A DNA stretch of 52,096 bases, counting the filler, from Sphacelaria rigidula (lineage: Eukaryota), in assembly GCA_964200075.2 (NCBI GenBank). It is 4 parts of 4 records of this genome, joined end to end, with 100 filler letters (N's around TTAATTAATTAA, not from the genome) between each part and the next. Parts side by side here need not be neighbours in the genome. Positions count along the whole stretch, not along the records: positions 26,101 to 39,048 come from CAXNAA020003274.1; 3 more parts are not named here. One strand, 5' to 3'. Below, piece by piece: positions 36,136 through 38,820 of the stretch. Below the pieces are notes generated by a model. The model saw only the letters and a program-made list of their open reading frames with translations. It searched no databases and was not told where the DNA came from. The stretch's first letter is position 1; each line of letters opens with the position of its first letter. The translations under genes and the position numbers were made by a program.

Positions 36136-36888
36136 TTGCGAAGGATTCAATTCCGGAGTTTTGTATTTTTCCGAAAAATTTCAAAATCGGTACAAATTTA
36201 ATGCAAGGTTTGCTCTTTCCGAGATACGAAACTACGAAATTCCCAAGAAAACCTCTCGTCGATGCAAATGTCCCTACCTAACTATATATGATTTAGTATG
36301 ACTGCACTAAAAAATCTCTAACTTTGTGTTGTATGAGTTTTAGGACACTTTAGTAAGAATTATGTAGTAGACATACCATGTAGTTCTGCCACATCACAAC
36401 AAGCACACGTACATTGACTAGTTGAATTTTGGACGACTTAATAGTAATGACTGGATTTCTCTCTCTCGTGAAACGTCACCCACTTATAATAGTCTACTTT
36501 CTGTACAAGTACTGTAGGCCGCCTAGAAAATACATTTCCTACAAAACACCATGCTTCGCACCTCATATCGGGCAAAGAGACTTTATCATTCATTGCAAGA
36601 TGCCTGACCTCTATTTCTACTTATAGTTTCTATACAACTTTGTATCACATATATTGTAGTAAACCCAACCGCCGTCTTCGATAGGGGCCCATACAAAAAA
36701 AGCGGGCGGAGGGTACACGAAGCGGTGTGTTAGGGTAGGCTCTGCTTTATACTGATGGGATGGTAGCATATCGTATTTTGTAATACCGTAATGTGATGTT
36801 ATCACCAAAATCGAAACCTGTCCGATTCTCCAATCCATAACCACATGTTGTACATACATCATAATGCTCCATTATATTGTATACTAAT

Positions 36889-37305
36889 GGTCCATTCCGC
36901 GATAGAGGGGTCACGTTTTGGACCCTGGATTGTTTAGGAAGCGTCCCGACATGATCGATTGTGGAAGGAATGAGTTTGACACGTGAACAGTGAGGCTTGC
37001 GAGGGGTAAGGGGCCCCGGAGATCACTGATGTGTCACGCCGGGATGGACCACGCATCATATATTTTGTTCAGGAAGCGACCAGTTTACCCATTGAACCAG
37101 TGAGCTCTAGCCCTTTCATTTCCAACATTAAAAAAAGTGGTTGCTGGACAGGGAGCGAGCTTCCCTCTTGTTTTGTGTATCACGGTGTGAAAAAACAAAT
37201 TCAATAACTGCCAGACATTGAGTAAAAAACAAAGATGTGATATTCGAACTTGGCCAAATACCCTGCGTGAAATCGGAGGTATCCCCCCTATCGTGGGATG
37301 GATCC
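36889..37305. mobile_element. MITE with 3-bp TSD (PIF/Harbinger-related)
   Basis: AAT|GGTCCATTCCGCGATAGAGGGG...CCCCCTATCGTGGGATGGATCC|AAT. Removing it restores the array unit (TACTAATACGTTGG). Confidence 0.65.
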
Positions 37306-37607
37306 AATACGTTGGTCGTATCGATCGAATCACCACTACAATTCTTCAATCCATAACCATCCGTTGTACATACATAATAATGCTCCATTATCTCATCATG
37401 TACTTCGTACGTTGGTCGTATCGCATCCATCGAATCGTTGCTACTGCAACTGCTGGATGACAATGGCAGAGACGTCGCCACCGCCGTTGTAGATGCTCGT
37501 ACTTTGTAATAATGTCATGTTATCACTACAACCGACACTTCTCCGATTCTCCAATCCATAACCGTCCGTTGTACATACGTACACCATAATGCTCCATTAT
37601 ATTTTAT

Positions 37608-37840
37608 TAGGGTTGTGGATCGGCTGAGTTTGTCGATGTTTTAAACATCGGTCTTCGGCGCAGCCGATATTCCGATACATCGGCGAAGCCGCCCCGCCGG
37701 AGGCGAAAGATGTTGGACCGAGTTTTGATCGGTTTATGAGTATTGAAAAACATGAAGAAAAATCGTCCCGATTACCGATTCGATGTCGATTCGATCAATC
37801 GCGATATAATCGGATGAATCGGTTTCGATTTACAGCCCTA
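37608..37840. mobile_element. hAT-type MITE
   Basis: TAGGGTTGTGGATCG...CGATTTACAGCCCTA with 8-bp TSD TATTTTAT/TATTTTGT. Confidence 0.75.
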
Positions 37841-38069
37841 TATTTTGTATTCTGTACTTATACGTTGGTCGTATTGTATCGATCGAATCGTTACTACTGC
37901 AACCGCTCGATGACAATGGCAGAGGCGCCGCCACCTCCGTTGCAGATGCTCGCACTTGGTAATAATGTCATGTTATATATCACCAAAATCGACACTCCTA
38001 CGATTCTTAAATCCAGAACCATCCCTTGAAATACTGTACATACATCATAATGCTTCATTATCTTCTACA

Positions 38070-38186
38070 CAAAAAAACAACTCCTGTGTGTTGACCTCCC
38101 TCCTGTGTGACCCCGGCAGTTGCCCGCTGATACCGAAAGGTGAAGACAGGCGTCCAGAATAGATGGGACGACAACACAACACACAC
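38070..38186 (+). repeat. Retroposon 3' end with (AC)n tail, copy 2
   Basis: Homologous to 36015-36135 and interrupts an array unit. Confidence 0.6.
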
Positions 38187-38427
38187 TTATACGTTGGCCG
38201 TATCGTATCGATCGAATCGTTACTACTGTAACCGCTCGATGACAATGACAGAGGCGCCGCCACCGCCGTTGCAGATGCTCGCACTTGGTAATACCGCAAT
38301 GTCATGTTTCCACCAAAACCGACAGACACTTCTCCGATTCTCCTATCCATAACCACTCGTTGCACATACACCATACAGCTCCATTATCAGTTATACTTAT
38401 ATTATACGTCGGTCGTATCGTATCGAT

Positions 38428-38676
38428 GACTGAGGCCACGGTAGGGGTGCACAACATTTTCTGAGCTTCAAAAATGAGAAACTCGATACCGCAGCCTAGA
38501 ATGGGCACTGATAAAGTATGAAAATATGACACGATACGTAATCCAATGGGGTAGATCAACCACGAGTGAAAATCAAGATCGGACGTGATGTTGCAAAACT
38601 GTGAGCTAGTTCCTCAGTCGGGGAAATGCGAGAAGATTCTGGGCCATAATGTGCTACCCCTACCGTGGCATGACTC
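38428..38676. mobile_element. Sola-like MITE with TIR related to family B but a different interior
   Basis: CGAT|GACTGAGGCCACGGTAGGGGTGCAC...GTGCTACCCCTACCGTGGCATGACTC|CGAT. The empty site TATCGATCGAATCG is seen in neighbouring array units. Confidence 0.8.
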
Positions 38677-38687
38677 CGATCGAATGG

Positions 38688-38820
38688 TTACCTCTGTAAG
38701 CGCTCGATGACAATGGCAGAGGCGCCGCCACCGCCGTTGCAGATGCTCGCACACCCAACAGTCCCGCCATTCTGCTTGAGCACGCGGTACAAGTTGCAGA
38801 TGATGCGAGCGCCCGACGAT
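38688..38820 (-). CDS. Terminal exon of acetyl-CoA C-acetyltransferase (thiolase), possibly a pseudo-exon
   Basis: (G)[43 protein letters not shown] contains the thiolase C-terminal catalytic CNGGGG motif. The expected splice acceptor reads TACAA instead of TACAG. Confidence 0.78.

Follow-up and report, generated by a model that had tools for sequence, protein, structure and literature searches.

A tandemly duplicated thiolase gene end with four mobile-element insertions in Sphacelaria rigidula

A tandem array behind a thiolase coding piece

In this study, we analyzed a stretch of 52,096 nucleotides from the Sphacelaria rigidula assembly GCA_964200075.2 (hereafter the window), which holds a tandem array of diverged copies of the end of a thiolase gene, with four mobile elements inserted among its five units. 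The window is a chain of contigs with N44-TTAATTAATTAA-N44 linkers at 12952-13051, 26001-26100 and 39049-39148, and adjacent contigs are not necessarily neighbors in the genome. The array is located at the right end of the contig at 26101-39048, which terminates in G-rich low-complexity sequence. Its units, of 209-215 bp each, follow one another head-to-tail on the minus strand, downstream of the thiolase last exon. The unit combines the final 60 bases of the coding sequence with some 150 bases from the 3' flank: it starts at the codon of the residue before ASICNGGGG and runs through the stop codon to the end of this flank, after which the next coding tail begins. We identified five flank copies (a to e, e being the closest to the gene) and four coding-tail copies, near 38738, 38270, 37941 and 37488, that match brown-algal thiolases in tblastn searches. 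The direct-repeat families of the array have spacings of 453/329/468 and 516/205/457/334 bp. Once the four inserts and one copy of each target site duplication (TSD) are removed, the five units align in gene orientation, with anchor-to-anchor periods of 212, 213 and 215 bp, and of 100 bp across a deletion between units a and b. The initial annotation had described a repeat of about 200 nt, made of the thiolase tail and its flank, in 4-5 copies; the alignment of the five units and the register of their profile matches bear this description out.

A profile hidden Markov model of the unit (209 positions), searched with nhmmer, recognizes the array as the sole locus in the 52 kb, on the minus strand only, and each of its matches breaks at an insert. 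We number the inserts ins1 to ins4 toward the gene. The gene-proximal unit e (38681-38744 and 38283-38427, minus strand) is split by ins4, with matches at 38750-38671 (profile positions 1-80) and 38427-38284 (71-209). Unit d (38187-38282 and 37954-38070, minus strand) is split by ins3 and is matched at 38282-38186 (1-97) and 38069-37955 (102-209), while unit c (37841-37953 and 37501-37607, minus strand) is split by ins2, with matches at 37953-37841 (1-112) and 37608-37503 (102-208); the overlap between these last two matches, one reaching 112 and the other starting at 102, is the TSD of ins2. Unit b (37331-37500, minus strand; match at 37499-37331, positions 2-170) is free of inserts. The gene-distal unit a (37306-37330 and 36777-36888, minus strand) is split by ins1 and is matched at 37331-37306 (65-95) and 36888-36777 (97-208), and a few bases of a decayed coding tail extend it to about 36771. 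Between units a and b, 103 bp have been deleted (profile positions 171-209 of b and 1-64 of a, the coding tail of a among them), which leaves the two units fused. Tandem Repeats Finder did not report the array, as expected given its break-up by the inserts.

The overall pairwise identity between units is 77-87%, and it is unevenly distributed: among units e, d and c, the 60 coding nucleotides and the next 34 are 91-95% identical, the remainder of the unit 75-82%, and the AT-rich spacer 62-76%. The possibility that the units act as alternative last exons was considered and rejected, as they would encode the same C-terminus, without any upstream thiolase sequence.

The coding piece from which the array extends, which is at the same time coding-tail copy e, comprises 43 codons at 38691-38819 on the minus strand, with its stop codon TAA at 38688-38690. 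In a profile search it matches positions 84-123 of the 123 positions of Pfam Thiolase_C (E 4.5e-9), and it matches acetyl-CoA acetyltransferases of solved structure (PDB) with E values down to 2.4e-13. Its identity to the thiolases of the brown algae Ectocarpus, Scytosiphon, Undaria, Pylaiella and Ascophyllum is 88-93%, and 81% to that of Tribonema; among the matches listed, no identity exceeds 93%. No further thiolase exons were found in the window by tblastn, and the piece is the sole part of a thiolase gene there. In our alignment A1, the full-length brown-algal proteins continue upstream of the homologous region with a GHP-containing segment, while in P0006, P0007 and P0015 (ORF-type models from raw contigs; ORF, open reading frame) the similarity ends just upstream of the same (S/A)SGAR, as would be expected with an intron at that point. 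Since the homology in the window also begins at (S/A)SGAR, where the intron is expected, the piece is predicted to be the last exon of its gene.

It is important to consider that this exon may be a pseudo-exon or a decaying copy, and its place in a working gene is doubtful on account of three features of its sequence, none of them decisive. First, the splice acceptor would be distant: there is no AG within 54 nt of the start of the homology, the closest ones (38877/76 and 38874/73) lie 54-57 nt upstream of it behind a long pyrimidine tract, and an exon begun at the closest AG would gain 18 residues that do not include the catalytic GHP motif. Second, the exon carries the changes S-to-N, H-to-R and D-to-G at positions common to the eight brown-algal sequences of A1. 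Third, its stop is altered: where units b, c and d read CAG TAG TAA, with the Q that is also the last residue of the orthologues, the exon reads CAG AGG TAA and is one residue longer. These oddities may instead reflect an organism more distant from the species compared. The DNA 5' of the exon (38820-39048, minus strand) has no thiolase similarity and becomes G-rich and of low complexity up to the end of the contig, about 230 bp upstream of the exon, where the linker at 39049-39148 follows.

To compare the array with public data, we placed Logan contigs from four public runs belonging to three studies (X1, X3, X4 and X9) on positions 35500-39040. X3 and X4, whose pieces agree in length and depth, probably represent the same data set deposited twice, and X1 may be the source data of the window. 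Unique DNA has a depth of about 65-80 in X1, and the unique flank of the array a depth of 63. The X1 depth is about twofold at 38713-38831; this was not counted as evidence of a second locus, because the c and d coding tails, which share 92-93% identity with that of e, can be placed there too. Thiolase loci were also fetched from metagenomes with A1, none of them from the same or a close species (best amino-acid identity, 85%). As a crude control, a duplicated coding tail downstream of the gene was found in 0 of 80 of these loci, which makes the array an accident of this locus rather than a feature of thiolases. In seven of the 80, a second weak match (E 0.2-0.94) was present, each time within the gene itself, some 375 nt upstream.

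Four insertions, each in its own unit

The initial annotation had placed four mobile elements in the array, and all four were recovered in place. Each insert is confined to one unit, and the other units show the uninterrupted (empty) site. These paralogous empty sites, together with the TSDs of ins1 (3 bp), ins2 (8 bp) and ins4 (4 bp), indicate that the insertions postdate the duplications.

The first insert, ins1 (36889-37305, unstranded), is a 417-bp element with terminal inverted repeats (TIRs) of about 23 nt, 19 of them matching, and the TSD AAT (36886-36888 and 37306-37308). It has the TIRs and the 3-bp TNA or ANT duplication of a PIF/Harbinger-type miniature inverted-repeat transposable element (MITE); an ANT-targeting Harbinger group is described in the excerpted account of Ectocarpus elements (PMC12477816), and the AAT of ins1 fits this form. 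The flanking and terminal depth bins of ins1 are at 80-97 in X1, while those at 36928-37165 reach 4.7e4-6.5e4. The core of the insert, at 36943-37105, is a piece of a very abundant repeat, with about 700-1,000 times the unique depth. Public contigs join this repeat to itself both in tandem (going back 163 bp) and inverted (on opposite strands), a loose end is found behind 37105, and the copy in ins1 stops at the palindrome center of the family. With single-copy termini around an abundant core that elsewhere is tandem or palindromic, ins1 is a composite. No multi-copy family sharing its termini was identified: at a likeness of at least 90% the terminal bins are single-copy, and the window holds no second copy.

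The second insert, ins2 (37608-37840, unstranded), is a 233-bp element flanked by an 8-bp TSD (37600-37607 and 37841-37848) whose copies agree at 7 of 8 positions. Its imperfect TIRs start with TAGGG, a start typical of hAT elements, and it contains many subterminal motifs of the ATCGG/CCGAT type; an 8-bp TSD and short TIRs are the marks of a hAT-type MITE. A multi-copy ins2 family was not found, since its depth equals that of the unique flank in all four runs and no second copy occurs in the window. A single contig bridges the whole of ins2 in each of X1, X3, X4 and X9.

The third insert, ins3 (38071-38186, plus strand), belongs to an interspersed repeat of very high abundance; the copy is about 116 bp long, with an A-run at its start and (AC)n at its end. 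Its depth bins in X1 reach 3.3e5-9.9e5, while unique DNA stays at about 65-80. Among family members, the loose ends that follow the (AC)n have unrelated continuations (agreement 0.37-0.43). Such a copy number, and a defined 3' tail behind which the flanks are unrelated, are what a non-LTR retroposon similar to a short interspersed nuclear element would present. A second member of the family lies just outside the array at 36018-36129 (plus strand; 80% identical to ins3; depth 2.5e5-4.8e5), and a TSD was recognized at neither window copy. No tRNA genes or Rfam families were found in the window.

The fourth insert, ins4 (38428-38676, unstranded), is a 249-bp MITE with the TSD CGAT (38424-38427 and 38677-38680) and TIRs of 21 nt that are 86% complementary. 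Its terminal bins have a depth of about 930-1,016 in X1, against about 65-80, or some 14 times the unique value. The ins4 TIR matches the end of a 257-bp MITE family, with which it has the TIR core in common and from which it differs in the interior. This family has four copies in the window (13439-13695, 18165-18418, 33657-33913 and 49086-49341), with 83-88% mutual identity and TIRs of about 21 nt; the TSDs are clean in three copies (GGCG, CCCT and TTAC) and imperfect in the fourth (TGGC/TGAT). With four related copies in 52 kb, such insertions are frequent here. The 4-bp TSD, the TIRs and the multi-copy family of ins4 are those of a Sola-type MITE. It is important to note that 4-bp TSDs are made by other superfamilies as well, and the label Sola is a guess; in general, the superfamily names Harbinger, hAT and Sola are plausible labels read from TSD length and TIRs alone.

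Origin of the array and position of the insertions

Our preferred reading, to which we give a probability of roughly 0.65, is that the locus is a small, old, gene-derived tandem duplication of minisatellite-like type in which ordinary transposable elements (TEs) later inserted, the whole being neutral. In the order of events that we infer, duplication would first have acted on about 213 bp that begin at codon 24 of the last exon, include the stop codon and extend some 150 bp into the 3' flank, and would have continued head-to-tail until there were five flank copies; the copies would then have diverged to their present 77-87% overall identity, and the 103-bp deletion would next have fused units a and b. 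Four unrelated elements would subsequently have inserted independently, one per unit, in or beside the AT-rich spacer: an element with TIRs and a 3-bp TSD, another with TIRs and an 8-bp TSD, a member of an abundant repeat family ending in (AC)n, and a MITE with a 4-bp TSD. Their similar phase within the unit would come mostly from a preference of the elements for AT-rich, accessible DNA, and they would have persisted because nothing purges them from non-functional DNA.

The four elements had been reported to land within about 40 bp of the same position of the unit, and our measurement gives a circular span of 35 of 213 bp, with insertion points at +1, -12, -3 and +23 relative to the anchor TACGTYGG. 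With the inserts removed, the array measures 944 bp, and over this length we simulated four insertions at a time, in 200,000 sets. The probability of a span of 35 bp or less was 0.020 under a uniform model, 0.025 with weights proportional to local AT content, 0.053-0.056 with AT content raised to the fourth power, and 0.053-0.15 with hard AT thresholds; these values concern four insertions in a pattern noticed post hoc, and the weights are not calibrated on independent insertions. The AT content in 15 bp at the four sites is 0.60-0.87 (69th to 99th percentile), against 0.57 for the array. Evidence for clustering beyond chance is therefore weak at best: the comparison with a random model that the initial annotation had called for gives a nominal 0.02 if insertion is uniform and 0.05-0.15 once a stronger AT preference is admitted. 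With regard to density, about 1,015 of the 2,050 bp, or some 50% of the stretch, are insert sequence, while an excerpt of the published Ectocarpus study (PMC12477816) gives TE shares of 52.9% for intergenic sequence and 8.8% for 3' untranslated regions (3' UTRs). Compared with the former figure, the density is ordinary for the intergenic DNA of a related alga, and no excess of TEs over background was found, the background being that of the relative Ectocarpus and not of the S. rigidula genome. The proposal that the array is an insertion hotspot or a TE trap is not supported. Neutral accumulation in AT-rich DNA, which the initial annotation had offered as its alternative, is the reading that we prefer.

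Several observations weigh against the preferred reading and have to be set beside it. The span is nominally unlikely under the uniform model, and the TSDs of the ins4 family (GGCG, CCCT, TTAC and CGAT) do not show an AT preference. If the array were a 3' UTR, its TE share would far exceed the 8.8% that the excerpt of PMC12477816 gives for those of Ectocarpus. The uneven divergence of the units is also not predicted by a purely neutral history (Fisher P 0.0007-0.2, over six non-independent pairs); candidate causes are a faster decay or slippage of AT-rich DNA, footprints of earlier insertions, and local gene conversion. Finally, two parts of the array are unbridged by the listed public contig pieces, namely the ins1 core (about 36977-37075) and positions 38109-38254, which include the right junction of ins3 at 38186/38187.

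An alternative that we consider unlikely, although the best placed of those competing with the neutral history, is that the AT-rich spacer (25% G+C) is a true insertion hotspot, where the period of about 213 bp could phase nucleosomes and leave the spacer of every unit exposed as linker DNA, to be hit preferentially by the transposases and retroposon endonucleases of several TE families. A preference for nucleosome-free DNA is known for a hAT element. The uniform-model probability of the 35-bp span would agree with a hotspot, as would insertions in four of the five flank copies and the position of the spacer as the most variable part of the unit, in both identity (62-76%) and indels, as repeated insertion and excision footprints would leave it. 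Against this, the events are only four and their pattern was noticed post hoc, the probability rises to 0.05-0.15 when AT preference alone is modeled, and the density of insertions is no higher than the intergenic average given for the related alga in the excerpted study (PMC12477816).

Support from public sequencing data

Due to the short contigs of which the window is made, it is important to consider that the array could be apparent only, produced by short-read contigs mis-joined through repeats. The linkers that chain these contigs, the G-rich low-complexity sequence in which a contig ends, 230 bp upstream of the exon, and the high-copy repeats (the ins1 core and ins3) that the listed contig pieces leave unbridged would all agree with such an artefact. 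Two factors make it very improbable. First, the four runs, from three studies, bridge most junctions independently and at single-copy depth. Individual X1 contigs, free of differences, cover 36100-36976, 37076-37933, 37906-38108, 38255-38730 and 38723-38930, and the piece at 37076-37933 alone runs from the right end of ins1 through the a/b fusion, unit b and the whole of ins2 into the beginning of the next unit c piece. The pieces of X3, X4 and X9 are near-identical to those of X1, and contigs of X1 and X9 reach up to 38930. The X1 depth across the array is 67-81, against 63 in the unique flank, which indicates that the array is not collapsed. Second, the phase of the unit continues exactly on both sides of the unbridged repeats (profile positions 95/97 at ins1 and 97/102 at ins3), which makes a mis-join there unlikely, and ins1 in addition has a matching TSD and TIRs.

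X9, which comes from another study, differs from the window by single-base changes and small indels while presenting the same units and inserts, and thus represents a second genotype with the same structure. The array structure is real and is common to two genotypes.

Other features of the window

The window also contains several features outside the array. On the minus strand, two long ORFs at 4960-5604 and 6249-8015 have similarity to ATG2_CAD (E 4e-22 and 3e-11, the latter below the Pfam cut-off), and a 495-residue ORF at 22387-23871 has a cytochrome b5-like domain (E 3e-11). With its ATG2-like and cytochrome-b5-domain ORFs, the window is, by its predicted coding content, eukaryotic. A gap of ten N's is located at 24127-24136.

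A 72-bp repeat, always preceded by a G-run, occurs at 11978-12051, 13122-13194, 26101-26173 (minus strand), 27972-28048 and 32152-32223 (minus strand), its copies being 88-100% identical. Two of them lie right at contig ends, and the repeat probably breaks the assembly there; one possibility is that it represents a short retroposon whose homopolymer tail lies on the opposite strand. Long low-complexity runs rich in G or C are found at or near contig ends at 38860-39048, 39221-39238 and 35620-35633, the cover by public contigs stopping at about 38930; such runs could be sequencing artefacts or homopolymer tails of repeats. In addition, the 226 bp at 11127-11352 are 77% self-complementary and constitute a foldback or palindromic element.

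Discussion

Our results describe a tidy case of gene-end duplication followed by TE accumulation, a further instance of known processes and of little importance for biology at large. Its value is of a practical kind. Each insertion is proven by the sister units, which serve as empty sites within the array itself, and exact TSDs are thereby obtained in a poorly studied algal lineage. For annotation, the locus carries two warnings: thiolases are matched in tblastn by the relic coding tails (about 38226-38285, 37897-37956 and 37444-37503 on the minus strand), and the exon adjoining the array may itself be a pseudo-exon. Only with proof of small-RNA production or of phased accessibility would the locus merit interest as a model hotspot.

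Small-RNA production is at the center of a further explanation, in which a transcript of the array, such as a long 3' UTR that includes it, would give rise to small RNAs acting to silence either the captured TE families or the thiolase. We regard it as highly doubtful. In its favor are the layout of repeats alternating with unique inserts, the fragments of at least four TE families in 2 kb beside a gene end, and the association of Ectocarpus small RNAs with TEs that is reported in the excerpted study (PMC12477816). Nevertheless, all the units are direct repeats that give no long inverted structure, and predicted RNA folds pair only the short termini of the inserts (z scores of -3.2 for ins2, -3.4 for ins4 and -0.8 for ins1), from which no hairpin or double-stranded RNA precursor would be predicted. 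Moreover, ins2 and the termini of ins1 are single-copy at a likeness of at least 90%, which leaves little for them to silence; the small RNAs of Ectocarpus go with intact, potentially active TEs and not with degraded fragments, according to the same excerpt (PMC12477816); and the adjoining exon may not be part of an expressed gene. Equally improbable is the combined proposal of a landing pad, in which the period of about 213 bp would phase chromatin, at least four TE superfamilies would hit the spacer, and 3' UTR read-through would feed small RNAs, as a miniature stramenopile trap; if it were true, the better-conserved 94-nt coding-tail block would reflect use and not chance.

Comparison with known systems

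The TE traps that produce small RNAs in animals are piRNA (PIWI-interacting RNA) clusters such as flamenco, which extend over tens to hundreds of kilobases. The array resembles them in that fragments of several TE families are packed in a short stretch. It differs in its length of 2 kb and in its occurrence in a stramenopile alga, and it is known here from DNA sequence alone; in addition, its TE density is not above the intergenic background of the related alga in the excerpted study (PMC12477816). With the PIF/Harbinger elements of Ectocarpus, as the same excerpt describes them (PMC12477816), ins1 has in common its TIRs and a 3-bp TSD, AAT, of the ANT form, and this likeness is limited to TSD and TIRs; unlike those elements, ins1 has single-copy termini and a core taken from another, abundant repeat.

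In the case of minisatellite-type duplications of gene ends, the similarities are a head-to-tail period of about 213 bp, diverged copies, an internal deletion, a location directly behind the parent exon, and a reading frame kept by chance only. Two differences stand out: the unit of the array spans the stop codon, leaving a 20-codon relic of the C-terminus in each copy, and the array has only five copies, four of them interrupted. As for nested or clustered MITEs in AT-rich DNA, the landing of MITEs in other repeats and in AT-rich microsatellites is known from plants, and the array likewise presents short TIR elements, with TSDs of 3, 8 and 4 bp, in the AT-richest part of its unit. What distinguishes the present locus is that four types of elements have entered different paralogous units at nearly the same phase, with the empty sites built into the array itself.

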